A stretch of DNA of 30,158 nt from Chthonomonadales bacterium (GTDB lineage: Bacteria; Armatimonadota; Chthonomonadetes; Chthonomonadales; Chthonomonadaceae), in the NCBI GenBank assembly GCA_038217285.1, contig JBBQPO010000038.1:1-30158 (forward strand). The letters are read 5' to 3'. Below are positions 8,659 through 25,508 of the stretch, piece by piece. The position numbers and the translations under genes are program-made. Position 1 is the first letter of the stretch. Each line of letters opens with the position of its first letter. Under the pieces are notes generated by a model. The model had not been told where the DNA came from. It saw only the letters and a list, made by a program, of their open reading frames with translations, and did not search any database.

Positions 8659-9813
8659 ATGGCAATCGTGGACGTTTTGGTCCCACAGATGGGAGAAGGA
8701 CTCACCGAGGTTCGGATCCTCGAACTCCAAAAGCAGCCTGGAGATCGCATTCGGCGCGATGAGCTTCTCTACAGTATGGAGACAGACAAGGATACGCTGG
8801 ATGTCGAGGCACCGTTCGACGGCATTCTGACCGAATGGTTGACCGAACCGGGTGCCATTCTGCCTGTCGGAGCGCCGATTGCGCGTATCGAGACGGAGAC
8901 TGTGGAGGCCTCTGCTCTCTCAAACTCCACCGATACCGCGATCAAACAAGGAGAGGGAAGCAAGTCCGAGAATCCCCTTTCAGGTTCGGTAACGAGGCCG
9001 GTCGTTGTGCCGCCGAGAACGCGCGCCTACTGCCGTGAGCGAGGAATCGCGGAAGAGGAGATGCTGCGCATTCGGGCTCCTTCCGGTAAACTGATGCCGG
9101 CGGATGTCGACGCCTATCTCGCTGCAAAAACCAGTCCCACGCCGCTCTCGGCAGCAGAGTACGTGGAGTATACACTCTCCGCACAGCAGCGGACATTCGC
9201 CTATCGTCTACGCCGCAGCGCACAGGTCGTCGTCGCAGGAACGATTCGCCGCCCGGTCGCCTGGAATGCCGTCCGCGATTTTGTCGTGGCGGAACGAGCG
9301 CGCGGAGCCGAACCGCGCCCAACCGAGTTTCAGACGTTCGCCTACTGCGTGGCCCAGGTGGTCCGGGAGTTTCCGAAATTTCGGTCTACGCTGATCGGCG
9401 AAGAAGTTGTTCGCGAGTCGGCGCATATCAATCTTGGCATCGCGGTCGCTCGCCCGAACGAAGAGCTGACGACGGCGGTGGTGCCGGCGGCGGATACGCT
9501 GGACTTCGCGACGTTTCTGCAGAGCGTAAAGGCACACATCCATGCGGCCCGAAATGGCGAAGACCAGATCGATTCCGACACGCAACTGCTGTTGACCTAT
9601 CTCGGGGCGACCGGAATCGAAGACGCGATCCCTGTGCTGGTTTCGCCTGCCATCGGTATTCTGTTCCTGGGCGCCCCTTATGTGCAAGACGGCGGCCTGA
9701 AAGCGAACCTGGTGCTGACGTTCGATCATCGCCTTATCTACGGTATCGAGGCCGCGAACTTTCTGAACAGTCTCGCCGACCGCATCGCGCAGTGGAGTGG
9801 ACCCGCCGCCTGA
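8659..9813 (+). CDS. 2-oxo acid dehydrogenase E2-like dihydrolipoamide acyltransferase (divergent)
   Basis: Lipoyl domain (PQMGEG...METDK), peripheral-subunit-binding-like segment, and a catalytic domain ending LTFDHRLIYG. Confidence 0.85.
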   Translation: MAIVDVLVPQMGEGLTEVRILELQKQPGDRIRRDELLYSMETDKDTLDVEAPFDGILTEWLTEPGAILPVGAPIARIETETVEASALSNSTDTAIKQGEGSKSENPLSGSVTRPVVVPPRTRAYCRERGIAEEEMLRIRAPSGKLMPADVDAYLAAKTSPTPLSAAEYVEYTLSAQQRTFAYRLRRSAQVVVAGTIRRPVAWNAVRDFVVAERARGAEPRPTEFQTFAYCVAQVVREFPKFRSTLIGEEVVRESAHINLGIAVARPNEELTTAVVPAADTLDFATFLQSVKAHIHAARNGEDQIDSDTQLLLTYLGATGIEDAIPVLVSPAIGILFLGAPYVQDGGLKANLVLTFDHRLIYGIEAANFLNSLADRIAQWSGPAA

Positions 9814-9836
9814 CCTTACCGGACGGAGTAAAGGCA

Positions 9837-9870
9837 CCACCGGCAGCAACTTTCGTGCCGGTGGCGTTTT
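9837..9870 (+). terminator. Intrinsic terminator after the E2-like gene
   Basis: CCACCGGCA/TGCCGGTGG 9-bp stem followed by CGTTTT. Confidence 0.6.
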
Positions 9871-9903
9871 GCGTAGGGATGGCGAAGGTTTGGGGGAGGA
9901 GCT

Positions 9904-9946
9904 AAAAAGAAGGATAGCCCGGATACGCTTGCGCGTACCGGGCTAT
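9904..9946 (-). terminator. Intrinsic terminator of the small minus-strand transcript
   Basis: Minus strand ATAGCCCGG-TACGC-GCAA-GCGTA-T-CCGGGCTAT (14 bp, GNRA loop, one bulge), then CCTTCTTTTT. Confidence 0.8.
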
Positions 9947-9997
9947 TGCAGGCGGGTCAGGACGGTTGCCCGTTCATAACCCGATGGCTAAAACAGG

Positions 9998-10033
9998 CTA
10001 GACCGCCTGCCCACCTCGTTGACTATCATTCAT
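9998..10033 (-). CDS. Putative 11-aa peptide MNDSQRGGQAV
   Basis: ATG AAT GAT AGT CAA CGA GGT GGG CAG GCG GTC TAG, preceded by AAAGGAGGT (10052-10044). Translation is unproven. Confidence 0.45.
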   Translation of the reverse strand: MNDSQRGGQAV

Positions 10034-10064
10034 GAAAGCCACCACCTCCTTTCAAGTCAAGACT

Positions 10065-10093
10065 ATTATCGCAGGTAGAATTGCGGATGTCAA
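10065..10093 (-). promoter_or_regulatory. sigma70 promoter of the small transcript
   Basis: Minus strand TTGACA (10093-10088), 17 bp, TG-c-GATAAT (-10 at 10070-10065). Confidence 0.75.
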
Positions 10094-10147
10094 GCCCTTT
10101 TTTACAAATGTTTCGAAGGGCCATAAACCGGTTCAAAGGAGACGACA

Positions 10148-11326
10148 GTGGAGTTACGTGAGATTACCGATGCGGAGCTGCAAGAGGCATTTGTGCTGGG
10201 AACGCAGGCGTTTAATCAGGGCGCACGGGATGACGATTTCGCCCGGGATCGCCTCAAAGATCCGAACCGTCTGCCCGCGACCTCCTACGGTCTTTGGGAC
10301 GAACACGGGCTGCAGGCGAAGGTGAATATCATCCACTACCGGCAGCATTTCGGGCCGGACTGTGTCTTCCCGATGGGTGGCATCGCCGGTGTGGCCTGTC
10401 TGCCTGCAAGCCGGGGGCGCGGCTATGCGGGCATCGTCTTGCGGCATGCGCTGGAGAAGATGCGCGATAATGGCGAGTTCGTCTCTACTCTCTTTCCCTT
10501 CAGTTGGGAGTTCTATCAGCGCCTGGGCTGGGCCTGGGTCGGGCGGCGCAACGACTATGTCGTTAAGACCGGCATCCTGAAGGCAGACAAGGAGACGGAA
10601 AACGTGCGCGCGGCTGTGCAGGCGGACCGTCCGGCGGTTAAGGCGTGCTACGTTGCCTGGGCAGGGCGTTATCGCGGCCTGGTCGAGCGCGATGACAAGA
10701 TCTGGAACCGGATACTGGACGACAGTGACAAGGAGTTCACCTATACCTTTCTGTATGAGCGCGAGGGCACCGTGGAAGGCTATCTCACCTTCAAGGGCTG
10801 GAAACGCGAAGAGACCTGGCTGCGCGAGTTCGTCGCGCTCACCTCACGCTCCCAACGCGCGCTCCTCGGCCTGCTGCGTCGGCACGAGATGCAGGTGGAA
10901 AACTTCGGTTGGCGCTCGCCCGAAGACGATGGTTTGTGGCATCAGATCTACCATTGGGATCTCAAGACACAGGTTCGGCCAGTGACGATGGCACGCATCG
11001 TCGATGTCCCTGCTGTGCTCATGGCCTGGAAGCCGAACGCCTCTTTCTCTGGCAAGGTCACGTTGCAGGTCCACGACGAAACTGCGTCGTGGAACAACGG
11101 AACGTGGCAGGCCGATTTCAGCGAGGGATCGGTAGAGGTCAAGGCTGTCATAGCCTCACCGGACATCACTCTGGATATTCAGGCTCTCACCCAGGCTTTC
11201 TACGGAACGCCGGATACGAGGAGCCTGCGCAGCGGCGGACGACTGGACGTTCATTCCGAGGCAGGGTTTGCGGCCCTATGTCAGTTGTTGGAGGGTCCGC
11301 CGATGTGGATGAACGACTCCTTCTGA
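10148..11326 (+). CDS. Eis-like GNAT acetyltransferase with C-terminal SCP2-like domain
   Basis: GGIAGVACLPASRGRGYA acetyl-CoA motif, LFPFSWEFYQRLGW, MARIVDV, WNNGTW and C-terminal Phe (NDSF). AAGGAG SD before the GTG. Confidence 0.9.
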   Translation: MELREITDAELQEAFVLGTQAFNQGARDDDFARDRLKDPNRLPATSYGLWDEHGLQAKVNIIHYRQHFGPDCVFPMGGIAGVACLPASRGRGYAGIVLRHALEKMRDNGEFVSTLFPFSWEFYQRLGWAWVGRRNDYVVKTGILKADKETENVRAAVQADRPAVKACYVAWAGRYRGLVERDDKIWNRILDDSDKEFTYTFLYEREGTVEGYLTFKGWKREETWLREFVALTSRSQRALLGLLRRHEMQVENFGWRSPEDDGLWHQIYHWDLKTQVRPVTMARIVDVPAVLMAWKPNASFSGKVTLQVHDETASWNNGTWQADFSEGSVEVKAVIASPDITLDIQALTQAFYGTPDTRSLRSGGRLDVHSEAGFAALCQLLEGPPMWMNDSF

Positions 11327-24914: not shown

Positions 24915-24943
24915 TTGACAGATGTGCTGTCCTATGGTATCTT
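24915..24943 (+). promoter_or_regulatory. sigma70 promoter of greA
   Basis: TTGACA (24915-24920), 17 bp, TG-g-TATCTT (-10 at 24938-24943). Confidence 0.75.
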
Positions 24944-24950
24944 AACTACG

Positions 24951-24996
24951 GTGCGAACACTTGCGCGTGAGCGAGTGCGTTCGCACTCTGTTTTTT
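24951..24996 (+). terminator. Terminator-like hairpin in the greA 5' leader (attenuator candidate)
   Basis: GTGCGAAC-ACTTGC-loop-GCGAGT-GC-GTTCGCAC followed by TCTGTTTTTT, located between the promoter and ATG 25029. Confidence 0.6.
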
Positions 24997-25028
24997 GCAC
25001 CCTAACCTCAGCGAACCGGGAGAACGGT

Positions 25029-25508
25029 ATGGAACAAGGCCAACTTATATTGACCGCCACCACCAAAAGGCAGAAGGAAGAGGAGCTTAATCGCCTCCGT
25101 TCCGTAGAGCGCCCGCTGGTGACCGAGCAGATCAAACGCGCCCGCGAGTACGGTGACCTGTCCGAGAATTTCGAGTATCAGGCGGCGCGCCAGTCGCAGG
25201 CGATATTGAATGGCAAGATCGCCGAGATCGAGGCGCTTCTGGAGCGAGCCACGATCGTAGACGATCCGGTCGGAGGCAGCGATAAAATAGGCATCGGGTC
25301 GATTGTCACCGTGAAGGATCTGGAGACGGAGGACGAATGGGAGTACATCATTGTGGATGCGACTTCCGCCGACCCGGCCAACGACCGCATCTCCTACTCC
25401 TCTCCCGTCGGGAAGGCCCTGATGAAGCGCAAGGTAGGGGAGATCGTGGAGGTCGCCATTCCGGCGGGAACGGCGAAGTACGAGATTGTGGCGATGCGAT
25501 TCGTCTAA
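25029..25508 (+). CDS. greA: Transcription elongation factor GreA
   Basis: AREYGDLSENFEYQAA acidic tip and ISYSSPVGKAL. 159 aa from ATG 25029. Confidence 0.95.
   Translation: MEQGQLILTATTKRQKEEELNRLRSVERPLVTEQIKRAREYGDLSENFEYQAARQSQAILNGKIAEIEALLERATIVDDPVGGSDKIGIGSIVTVKDLETEDEWEYIIVDATSADPANDRISYSSPVGKALMKRKVGEIVEVAIPAGTAKYEIVAMRFV

Follow-up and report, generated by a model that had tools for sequence, protein, structure and literature searches.

The window, the whole stretch of 30,158 nucleotides analysed here from a Chthonomonadales bacterium, carries a compact transcription unit on its minus strand. A −35 hexamer TTGACA (10088–10093) is followed, after a 17-nt spacer, by an extended −10 element TG-C-GATAAT (10065–10073), an 11/12 match that a first-pass annotation, made from the letters alone, had already picked out. 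In our promoter scan this is the single sigma-70-like site in 9000–11000, a region in which 0.7 ± 0.8 sites are expected by chance. The predicted RNA, with its +1 placed from the −10 element and its 3′ end from the U-tract, is approximately 155 nt long (9904–10058, minus strand). It closes with the intrinsic terminator that had been proposed (9904–9946), in which a GCAA loop caps a singly bulged 14-bp stem (9946–9914) and CCUUCUUUUU follows down to 9904. A simple terminator scan of the window listed none, this one included, because the stem carries a bulged U. The further claim that no gene lies downstream on the same strand holds as well: the open reading frame at 9208–9849 (minus strand) has no Pfam match and overlaps the plus-strand E2 acyltransferase gene, which is the next gene in the window and convergent with the RNA. 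An apparent long downstream frame in the L040 clade corresponds, as read from the sequence, to the end of a convergent opposite-strand gene.

Both boundaries recur across the family. Among 78 distinct members, 68 have a promoter matching at least 10 of 12 positions at the same relative place, 34 of these with the TG extension, and 76 have a GC-rich hairpin followed by a U-rich stretch, 65 being credibly placed by inspection. Sequence words of the stretch are present in 18 RNA-library runs. Metatranscriptomes with the RNA come from soil, litter and moss, and their contigs, 86–181 nt long and from four runs of four studies, all fall inside 9895–10084 (9895–10084, 9906–10084, 9911–10060, 9902–9976 and 9947–10040). 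Contig ends near the terminator lie at 9895–9911 and two contigs extend 16–26 nt upstream of the predicted +1, but the contigs fix neither strand nor RNA ends and so are weak evidence for the ends of the unit; as they derive from relatives, the flanks that they leave uncovered are no evidence. Comparison of promoters and terminators on the one hand and the RNA contigs on the other thus back a stand-alone transcription unit, and the locus is very probably a real gene that is both conserved and expressed.

A second copy in the same genome has 88–91% nucleotide identity to the first, whereas the proteins flanking the copies share 68–70% amino-acid identity; by this measure the RNA has diverged less than the genes beside it. 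Within the order, BLAST finds the RNA in 46 of 61 genomes. Across the phylum, covariance model R1, whose 90 positions represent the 5′ part of the RNA, matches 33 of 151 genomes, in families f1–f3, f7, f11, f14, f16, f20, f23 and f29. When 185,579 species genomes were scanned for an exact pattern that required GGTGGTG, ATG, AGTCAAC and GTTTTA.C, the source of 57 of the family loci, the scan returned 57 contigs, 52 of them titled Armatimonadota or a subgroup and five only ‘bacterium’. None bears the name of another phylum, which goes against an earlier impression that similar elements occur in other Terrabacteria. In the subset found by this pattern the invariance of those letters is circular, because the pattern required them. 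The family appears, as far as searched, to be confined to Armatimonadota. Its members are 150–240 nt long and are present in one or two copies per genome, including in metagenome-assembled genomes titled Chthonomonas calidirosea. The flanking genes differ between clades and the downstream genes vary across the family. A phage origin was rejected, there being no matches to the RNA in viral contigs.

The RNA falls into none of the known classes that we checked. Rfam 15 yields no match in the window at gathering thresholds; at E values up to 10, only COG2908 (11.7 bits, threshold 58.7) and CC2171 (10.7 bits, threshold 75) appear, and searches of 20 member loci return only two tRNAs, elsewhere in the loci. 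The first-pass annotation had recognised no tRNA, tmRNA, 6S RNA or SRP RNA, and the dedicated searches agree: ARAGORN finds no gene in the window, the only 6S candidate of the genome lies elsewhere (RF00013, G000:C75:5750–5934, 44.9 bits against a cut-off of 46.4), as does the SRP RNA match (RF00169, G000:C81:2490–2588, 46.6 bits). Nor does the RNA, read directly, contain the multiple loop GGA motifs of a CsrB/RsmZ-type sponge; GGA occurs only in the Shine–Dalgarno (SD) site, and the loop of hairpin P1, described below, is AUGAAUGAU. Many relatives have AUGGAU in this loop, a feature that is not kept family-wide. A literature search found no relevant description of this RNA and no paper on small RNAs of Armatimonadota, and the family is, as far as searched, previously undescribed.

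Near the 5′ end, the SD site AAAGGAGGUG (10043–10052, minus strand) forms a 10-nt Watson–Crick complement to GGAUCACCUCCUUU, the 16S 3′ end, as had been noted. This end was read in all five relatives with an assembled rRNA, the window’s own assembly being without 16S. Within the site, GGAGGUGGUG is invariant in alignment A3, GGTGGTG having been a search-pattern requirement for part of the set. The frame that follows runs from ATG at 10033 to TAG at 9998 (9998–10033, minus strand) and codes for MNDSQRGGQAV. The annotated second SD-like element, GAGGTG, is present inside the frame (10012–10017), where it forms the outer end of the P2 5′ strand and is paired in the minimum free energy (MFE) fold.

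Frame length is tightly held among the 78 distinct members, with 11 codons in 67, 10 in seven, 12 in two, 14 in one and 18 in one, the last two having lost the usual stop. The stop codon itself varies (TAG in 56, TAA in 16, TGA in six) but keeps its place and is never TGG. The two spacers that flank the frame, 9–13 nt from SD to AUG and 0–5 nt from the stop to GUUUUA, vary in 1-nt steps, and length changes within the frame are of whole codons only; in the 10- and 12-codon members the stop lies at most 3 nt before GUUUUA, as in the 11-codon members. The conservation of frame length and stop position, between spacers that vary by single nucleotides, is a comparative signature of translation and fits the proposal, made in the first-pass annotation, of a small RNA that also encodes a micropeptide. 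On this comparison, the frame is likely to be truly translated.

The peptide is another matter, as only S-Q-R(-G) is kept across the family. Codons 4–7 (AGU CAA CGA GGU) are nearly invariant in their nucleotides and are minor codons in this genome (12, 14, 9 and 12% of their families). Because they double as the 3′ strand of P1 and the beginning of P2, RNA constraints alone could account for their invariance. There are hints in the sequences of amino-acid selection, since Arg is encoded by CGA, CGG or AGA across members and Ser by UCC in L118. In genus g52, Ser is replaced and the Gln position holds Q, K or E.

These observations bear on two rival explanations. In the first, the RNA is a non-coding structured molecule with an incidental frame, whose SD-like and AUG letters serve structure or factor binding without productive translation. 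Codons 4–5 are indeed invariant at the nucleotide level, with one synonymous change (L030) among 31 BLAST-found members; the conserved codons are all minor, most of the frame is covered by P1, P2 and P3, and the fixed distance from AUG to stop could partly stem from fixed helix lengths. The interchange of three stop codons at one position, the restriction of in-frame length changes to whole codons between spacers that drift by single nucleotides, and an SD core perfectly complementary to the 16S tail at a 9–13-nt spacing all speak against such a reading, which we regard as rather improbable.

In the second, the RNA is nothing but a very abundant, stable mini-mRNA similar to mccA, made for high-yield synthesis of an 11-residue peptide M-x-x-S-Q-R-G-x4, with the hairpins providing stability and termination. 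The strong SD, the short frame of conserved length and poorly conserved sequence and the terminator right behind it are as in mccA, S-Q-R is kept through other codons in L118 and L097, and short frames of the mccA type are reported to be translated reiteratively (PMC6495379). This explanation sits badly with a peptide of which only two to four residues are conserved, with even Ser and Gln yielding in g52, and whose C-terminal residue is variable and is Asn in only two of 78 members. No MccB-like or maturation gene occurs among the 14 Pfam-matching open reading frames of the window (19 scanned), and the flanks vary by clade. A mere mRNA also needs no sequence invariance in P3 beyond the stop codon. 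We consider a micropeptide as the sole product unlikely.

The 155-nt RNA has an MFE of −82.5 kcal/mol, compared with −50.2 ± 3.7 kcal/mol for shuffled sequences (z = −8.8; 0 of 200 shuffles as good). The first-pass annotation had described a three-way junction; the MFE fold and an unbiased RNAalifold analysis of 22 members, which recovers P1, the inner part of P2 and a long P3, both give one long hairpin instead. In P1 (10017–10044, minus strand), placed by RNAalifold, UG.UGGCU pairs with AGUCA.CG and the AUG sits in the loop. The 5′ strand of P2 (10002–10016) consists of codons 6–11 and its 3′ strand (9950–9966) reads ACCG-U-CCUG-A-CCCGCCU, both placed by the MFE fold and the partner test below. 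P3 (9968–9998), present in the MFE fold and in RNAalifold, pairs GCCUGUUUUAGCC with GGUUAUGAACGGGC around the loop AUCG. The stop codon, previously assigned to a helix, falls in the internal loop that separates P2 from P3, with only its G paired. The window sequence allows a proposed 5′ hairpin, GACU-UGAAAG/CUUUCA-AGUC, to be drawn, but this hairpin is absent from the MFE fold and is not kept even in the second copy in the genome.

Three MFE folds share this plan of P1, P2/P3 and terminator: those of the window RNA (z = −8.8), of L040 (z = −7.75) and of L010 (z = −4.55). The plan is not recovered in the MFE fold of L105. The GCAGGCGG/CCGCCUGC helix of the earlier model is an alternative register of the long hairpin, and this register, that helix together with a P4 hairpin, has 87.7% of cells paired on alignment A2. 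As a family structure, the three-way junction with P4 was rejected: it fails in the L029/L031/L040 clade, is broken by L007 and gives way to the long hairpin in the folds. The modelled pairings suggest that the main clade can adopt both registers, with the earlier one as a putative alternative conformer there.

Conservation of the long hairpin was assessed on A5, an alignment of 76 distinct rows that is model-fitted and so leans towards structure; on it, 92.4% of cells are paired overall, compared with 31–52% when the partners are slid, and nine pairs have changes on both sides compared with 5.0 in shuffles. P1 has 96.4% of its cells paired and P3 91.9%, with six of the 12 P3 pairs changing on both sides. 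For P2, the frame pairs with its own 3′ strand at −28.0 kcal/mol compared with −21.7 kcal/mol for the strands of other members; in 33 of 55 members its own strand is among the five best partners, and in 42 of 55 it beats all 50 shuffles. P3 is a sequence-invariant module, GUUUUAGCC/GGUYAUGAAC, in which the sequence is kept and not the pairing alone. Its tip carries a 36–86-nt insert in most genera, and its motif occurs twice in genus g52. A possible second frame, with the conserved AUGAAC as its start, was considered and dropped, as it stops after six codons in the window and, by eye, is not kept.

Two ways in which the 3′ part of the RNA might mask the SD site found no support. A closing helix between the 5′ and 3′ ends forms when the window RNA and L040 are folded by MFE but is not a family feature: in 65 members, the own tail pairs at −4.81 kcal/mol and other tails at −4.79 kcal/mol, with ranks evenly spread. 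Self-limiting initiation through pairing of the SD with the freed 3′ strand was likewise set aside; such pairing forms in 32 of 65 members compared with 28.6 expected after strand shuffling. With a ribosome mask, 47 of 65 members have a paired SD core; without it, 33 of 65 do.

A further explanation is a ribosome or 30S sponge in which the 10–12-nt SD, the minor codons and an approximately 28-bp roadblock hold ribosomes on an abundant RNA, for example as a reserve during slow growth. The SD site is unusually long, four minor codons follow in succession and a stable hairpin begins approximately 17 nt past the A of AUG; the near-consensus promoter also fits. A fixed in-frame stop nevertheless argues for ribosomes that finish and leave, the invariance of P3 would go unexplained, and each genome has one or two gene copies. 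We give this explanation little credence.

Short frame, hairpin and terminator together also have the layout of a leader peptide, and the RNA could be an orphan of a ribosome-dependent attenuator in which translation of the frame controls read-through of the terminator, for example into greA in some clades. Eight loci in other families have greA-lysS on the same strand, 150–280 nt downstream of the RNA, and in L027, L028 and L053 a gene starts approximately 10–20 nt past the terminator. By contrast, the next gene in the window is convergent, downstream genes differ across the family and the peptides of its members contain no run of codons for a repeated residue. In addition, greA is not adjacent to the RNA in the window or in the whole order Chthonomonadales, and the greA paralog of the window has a separate leader terminator of its own. 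When the 5′ end was masked up to 13 nt past the stop, the terminator hairpin was unchanged in 65 of 65 members; no antiterminator therefore forms in silico, and ribosome-driven antitermination was rejected on that basis. Attenuation is very improbable as an account of this RNA.

We favour, with a probability of roughly 0.5, a stand-alone translated, dual-function small RNA containing an RNA module that is gated by ribosome transit; the best reading is that frame geometry and the RNA module matter more than the peptide. In this model, the RNA would be a mini-mRNA joined to a structured domain. A free SD site of 10–12 nt, located 8–10 nt from the 5′ end, would load ribosomes, and the start codon would be presented in the P1 loop. 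The last five to six codons would form the 5′ strand of an approximately 28-bp hairpin (P2 plus P3), and ribosomes could reach the stop codon only by melting P2 together with the lower half of P3. The conserved module would therefore open transiently whenever the frame is translated, freeing the 3′ strand, which would refold locally. Selection would act on the act and geometry of translation and on the RNA module, more than on the peptide. We infer gating of P3 because P2 starts approximately 17 nt after the A of AUG, the stop lies directly after P2 and P3 is invariant in sequence. The existence of a partner for the module, and the gating of the module by translation, are tentative parts of the model. 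More speculatively, the RNA could be a constitutively made, trans-acting ‘translation sensor’, with P3 as a sequence-specific module binding a cellular partner only while the hairpin is closed. If so, a ribosome running the 11-codon frame would open the hairpin, the pool of free partner would track translation-initiation capacity, and the RNA would represent a class of riboregulator whose input is a complete round of translation as opposed to a ligand or a base-pairing RNA.

Constraint stronger than that on the flanking protein genes, a near-consensus promoter and presence in metatranscriptomes together indicate that the RNA probably does something central in a poorly studied phylum. Its design is unusual, with the second half of a fixed-length frame forming one strand of a long hairpin and the stop placed in a loop beside an invariant module. 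It offers a clean, testable case for asking how a stand-alone RNA could use the passage of a ribosome as a signal, and why a tiny frame would be conserved in length and not in sequence, the latter a question so far raised mainly for mccA. The cultured Chthonomonas calidirosea may provide an experimental entry point.

Parts of this design have counterparts in known systems. In Sinorhizobium meliloti, two reports describe rnTrpL, an attenuator-derived small RNA, and the 14-residue leader peptide peTrpL as both acting in trans (PMC7968998, PMC7298713). Here, too, a small terminated RNA carries a leader-size frame, in this case putatively translated, but the sequences are unrelated and the window RNA has no Rfam match, does not precede a biosynthetic operon, lacks sensing codons and showed no antiterminator. 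The trp, his and pheA attenuators have a short translated frame followed by hairpins and an intrinsic terminator. The window RNA shares the short, here probably translated, frame, the hairpins and the terminator, and differs in having no regulatory codon run, alternative antiterminator or constant downstream operon.

GraL, the greA leader of Escherichia coli, is described as giving rise to short terminated transcripts of 40–60 nt upstream of greA (PMC2836576). The eight loci of other Armatimonadota families with the RNA upstream of greA on the same strand resemble this arrangement; in the window and the order Chthonomonadales the RNA is not beside greA. To our knowledge, GraL has no conserved frame. 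Dual-function small RNAs include SgrS/SgrT, RNAIII/delta-haemolysin and SR1/SR1P, and those known to us all have frames longer than 11 codons. The window RNA likewise combines a small frame with independent transcription from its own promoter to its own terminator, but here the coding sequence is built into the main structural helix. The class of dual-function small RNAs is treated in reviews (PMC12310071, PMC12612679).

mccA, from the microcin C operons of E. coli and Helicobacter pylori, resembles the RNA in its strong SD, its tiny frame of conserved length and the terminator directly after it. According to two reports, the mccA transcript is short, very abundant, ribosome-bound and ribosome-stabilised, ends at an intrinsic terminator and combines a strong SD with a frame conserved in length and not in sequence (PMC4231749, PMC6495379); one of them describes reiterative translation without the ribosome leaving, with an 11-codon variant still undergoing approximately 30 rounds (PMC6495379). 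Unlike mccA, with its seven codons, the window RNA has 11, only two of 78 members encode a C-terminal Asn, and the Pfam-scanned open reading frames of the window include no mccB or other cluster gene near the RNA. In silico, the ribosome leaves termination of the RNA unaltered, and its frame, unlike that of mccA, enters an approximately 28-bp hairpin with an invariant module.

The RNA forms a compact transcription unit on the minus strand. In the sequence of 9700–10300, a −35 element TTGACA (10093–10088) and an extended −10 element TG-C-GATAAT (10073–10065), 17 nt apart, precede the SD site AAAGGAGGUG (10052–10043), the frame MNDSQRGGQAV (ATG at 10033, then ten codons, TAG at 10000–9998) and a terminator, whose GC-rich hairpin is capped by a GCAA loop (9946–9914) and followed by CCUUCUUUUU to 9904. 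A promoter scan of 9000–11000 finds this promoter alone as a sigma-70-like site, with an 11/12 match and the TG extension, where shuffles lead one to expect 0.7 ± 0.8 sites. A simple terminator scan of 9000–11000 lists none, because the stem carries one bulged U, which that scan disallows; the GCAA-capped hairpin is nevertheless present in the fold. The first-pass annotation is thereby partly confirmed: the promoter, SD site, frame and terminator it claimed are right by sequence, promoter scan and fold, and the fold it proposed is not. The unit is convergent with a gene for a lipoyl-bearing 2-oxoacid dehydrogenase E2 (8659–9813) and divergent from one for an Eis-like double-GNAT/SCP2 acetyltransferase (10148–11326). 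Since both flanking genes lie on the plus strand and the minus-strand ORFs 9208–9849 and 10154–10447 have no Pfam match, the RNA unit stands alone. Between its terminator and the E2 gene lies a second hairpin, GCCACCGGCA...UGCCGGUGGU (9835–9872), which probably terminates E2 transcription, because TTTTG comes next on the plus strand.

At gathering thresholds Rfam 15 gives no match in the window, placing the RNA in none of its families, and at E up to 10 it adds two chance-level matches and nothing else; an Rfam search of 20 member loci returns just two unrelated tRNAs. ARAGORN finds neither tRNA nor tmRNA in the window, and the genome's 6S candidate and SRP RNA sit on different contigs, in keeping with the earlier view that the RNA is none of these. 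The 6S candidate (G000:C75:5750–5934) is full-length and scores 44.9 bits, just under the Rfam cut-off of 46.4. A full-text literature search for noncoding RNA in Chthonomonas or an RNA motif in Armatimonadetes gave nothing relevant. Neither Rfam nor the literature searched contains the family, which by type is a variant of the small RNAs that carry an sORF.

The same genome holds a second copy with 91% identity (G000:C2:67802–67992, locus L002) in the same gene order as in the window: PBP1, E2, RNA, Eis-like GNAT. The proteins beside it are only 67–70% identical to the window's counterparts, and the copy stems either from an old segmental duplication or from the contig of a co-binned relative. 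BLAST with 201 nt matches 46 of 61 genomes of the order Chthonomonadales, its own included (families f1, 32/36; f2, 2/2; f3, 11/22). An exact degenerate pattern, scanned against 185,579 species, each represented by a single genome, matches 57 contigs, 51 of them titled Chthonomonas, Chthonomonadaceae, Chthonomonadales, Chthonomonadia, Armatimonadota or Armatimonadetes, one Fimbriimonadaceae and five just ‘bacterium’; viral contigs contain no match to it. Model R1, a covariance model built on the 90 nt at the 5′ end, has matches in 33 of the 151 genomes that sample the phylum Armatimonadota, in families that include f7 (1/1), f16 (9/13), f20 (3/3), f23 (5/6), f11 (1/12), f14 (1/6) and f29 (1/7). 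The other sampled families gave no match in this search, which may miss weak members because Infernal's stricter filters were in use. The interpretation first offered, an unannotated dual-function small RNA and micropeptide locus or, alternatively, an RNA that would capture 30S subunits or ribosomes, is partly supported; the accompanying impression of occurrence in other Terrabacteria gains no support from the pattern scan of 185,579 species genomes.

Words of the RNA stretch occur in 18 runs recorded as RNA libraries. Contigs mapped from four runs of four studies (soil, leaf litter, moss) are 86–181 nt long and all confined to the RNA unit: 9895–10074 (a whole contig, 180 nt), 9906–10084 (181 nt), 9911–10060 (163 nt), 9902–9976, 9905–9976 and 9947–10040. 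They differ from the window at 5–7 positions, that is, they derive from relatives, and because of this the lack of contigs on the less conserved flanks is no evidence. Neither strand nor RNA ends can be read off assembled contigs; their 3′ limits cluster at the terminator, and one 5′ limit, 10060, agrees with the predicted start at about 10058. Two contigs (RNA-library runs X3 and X4) reach 16–26 nt further upstream than the start that the −10 element predicts (10059–10084), which may reflect read-through, DNA carry-over or an alternative start site.

For the predicted 155-nt RNA the folding energy is −82.5 kcal/mol, compared with −50.2 ± 3.7 for 200 dinucleotide shuffles (z = −8.8; 0/200 as good). 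The first-pass annotation had put forward a three-way junction with GCAGGCGG/CCGCCUGC as its closing helix; in 31 BLAST-found members, this register and the neighbouring hairpin are paired in 87.7% of cells, against 31–41% with slid partners. Comparison of a wider member set shows the common fold to be a different one. The strand immediately 3′ of AUGAACGG is the frame's pairing partner, over 14–16 bp, in the clade that comprises L029, L031 and L040, and L007 has two uncompensated mismatches in the proposed register and gains an A-U pair in the longer one. These loci, the MFE folds and RNAalifold all favour a long hairpin, which is common to the MFE folds of the window, L040 (a MAG titled Chthonomonas calidirosea; z = −7.75) and L010 (z = −4.55) and is recovered by RNAalifold from a plain MAFFT alignment of 22 insert-free members; the MFE fold of L105 does not reproduce it.

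The plan starts with P1, a small hairpin formed between the letters after GGAGG and codons 3–6; the AUG lies in the P1 loop. P2, of about 15 bp, pairs codons 6–11 with a downstream strand (10016–10002 with 9966–9950), and an internal loop containing the stop codon separates it from P3, where GCCUGUUUUAGCC pairs with GGUYAUGAACGGGC (9998–9986 with 9981–9968). The tip is a UUCG-like loop or, in most genera, a 36–86-nt insert, and the terminator comes last, after the long hairpin. In an alignment of 81 matches (76 distinct rows), which is fitted to the model and hence leans towards it, P1 and P3 are 92.4% paired, against 31–52% when slid; changes on both sides affect nine pairs, where shuffles give 5.0 ± 1.1, and as many as five pair types occur at the basal positions of P3. 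Because MAFFT aligns the partner strand of P2 inconsistently, the 3′ half of each frame was compared with its own and all other members' partner strands, leaving out two rows with a mislocated anchor. Mean pairing energy is −28.0 kcal/mol with the own strand and −21.7 with the others; the own strand is in the top five for 33/55 members and beats all 50 shuffles in 42/55. In eight loci of genus g52 (L110–L115, L117, L119), the GUUUUAGC/AUGAAC motif is present twice in the long hairpin, the inner copy with its strands swapped.

The 115 loci reduce to 78 distinct sequences, of which 67 have a frame of 11 codons, seven have 10 (all g52), two have 12, and one each has 14 and 18; L098, L103 and L105, outside this set as the anchor demanded GTTTTA, have 11 codons each when read by eye. 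Stops are TAG (56), TAA (16) and TGA (6), with variable flanking letters. The SD-to-AUG spacer has five lengths (9–13 nt) and the stop-to-GUUUUA distance is 0–5 nt, so 1-nt indels are tolerated on either side of the frame; members with 10 or 12 codons (L030, g52, L116) keep the stop beside GUUUUA, so length changes are whole codons. The 16S 3′ end reads GGAUCACCUCCUUU in five relatives, making the SD site a perfect 10-nt complement. This pattern is that expected of a translated frame, though indirect: frames are whole codons by definition, the informative point being that the stop is held at one structural place, 57 loci came from a search pattern that itself fixes part of the sequence, and helix lengths could contribute to the fixed AUG-to-stop distance. 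The peptide is weakly conserved, M-x-x-S-Q-(R/Q/P)-(G/R/E)-x4, or M-A-D-(Q/K/E)-R-G in g52 (for example MADQRGDSEG, one codon shorter). AGU, CAA, CGA and GGU are near-invariant in nucleotides, yet minor codons (12, 14, 9 and 12% within their families, counted in ten window genes with Pfam support), so the codons are under RNA-level constraint, exerted by P1 and by the beginning of P2. Arg is spelt CGA, CGG or AGA among members, and the most distant, L118, spells S-Q-R as UCC CAA AGA, which hints at selection on amino acids.

The surroundings vary. In Chthonomonadales the constant neighbour is the divergent Eis-like acetyltransferase (37/88 loci, not de-duplicated; directly adjacent in 20), and in other Armatimonadota families greA-lysS lies 150–280 nt downstream on the same strand in eight loci (L049, L050, L051, L096, L100, L103, L105, L107), with greA immediately upstream instead in L043. 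Attenuation is not supported: no downstream gene is constant across the family, and the terminator hairpin stays intact in 65/65 members when masking in silico covers the RNA from its 5′ end through the 13 nt that follow the stop. The window and L040 have, in their MFE folds, a 5′–3′ closing helix that would hide the SD site; as a family feature it fails, each leader pairing at −4.81 kcal/mol with its own tail and −4.79 with other members' tails. SD capture by the strand freed from P2 (32/65, against 28.6 expected with that strand shuffled) has no support either. P2 starts about 17 nt downstream of the A of the AUG, so an initiating ribosome would have the hairpin at its entry, and the stop directly follows P2, so a terminating ribosome would already have opened P2 together with the lower part of P3. 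Ribosome transit might in this way open a partner-binding RNA module, a gating model to which we give about one chance in three. That P3 is recognised by something is suggested by its conserved sequence and by the doubled motif in g52.

Our conclusion is that the RNA represents a new family of small RNAs that stand alone and, judging by comparison, are apparently translated, and in which the existence, length and position of the frame are under selection together with the RNA module. The nearest described system in mode of working is the mccA mini-mRNA of microcin C operons. According to PMC4231749 and PMC6495379, mccA has a strong SD site, an intrinsic terminator and a 7-codon frame of conserved length and variable sequence, its transcript is ribosome-bound and very stable, and its reiterative translation still works with 11 codons. 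The Armatimonadota RNA lacks two features of the mccA family and falls outside it: the peptide ends in Asn in just 2 of 78 members, and no MccB gene was seen among the window ORFs scanned with Pfam. It also resembles dual-function sRNAs in general and rnTrpL/peTrpL, an attenuator-derived sRNA with its leader peptide. Ahead of a greA paralog in the window (ATG at 25029), a leader region (24915–24997) carries a promoter-like TTGACA-17-TATCTT, then a hairpin GUGCGAAC...GUUCGCAC and UCUGUUUUUUG; the other paralog (G000:C180) has a promoter and possible leader hairpin, then a U-run. The terminator of the window's leader recalls E. coli GraL, the greA leader RNA, whose position upstream of greA is that of the Armatimonadota RNA in the eight loci of other families.
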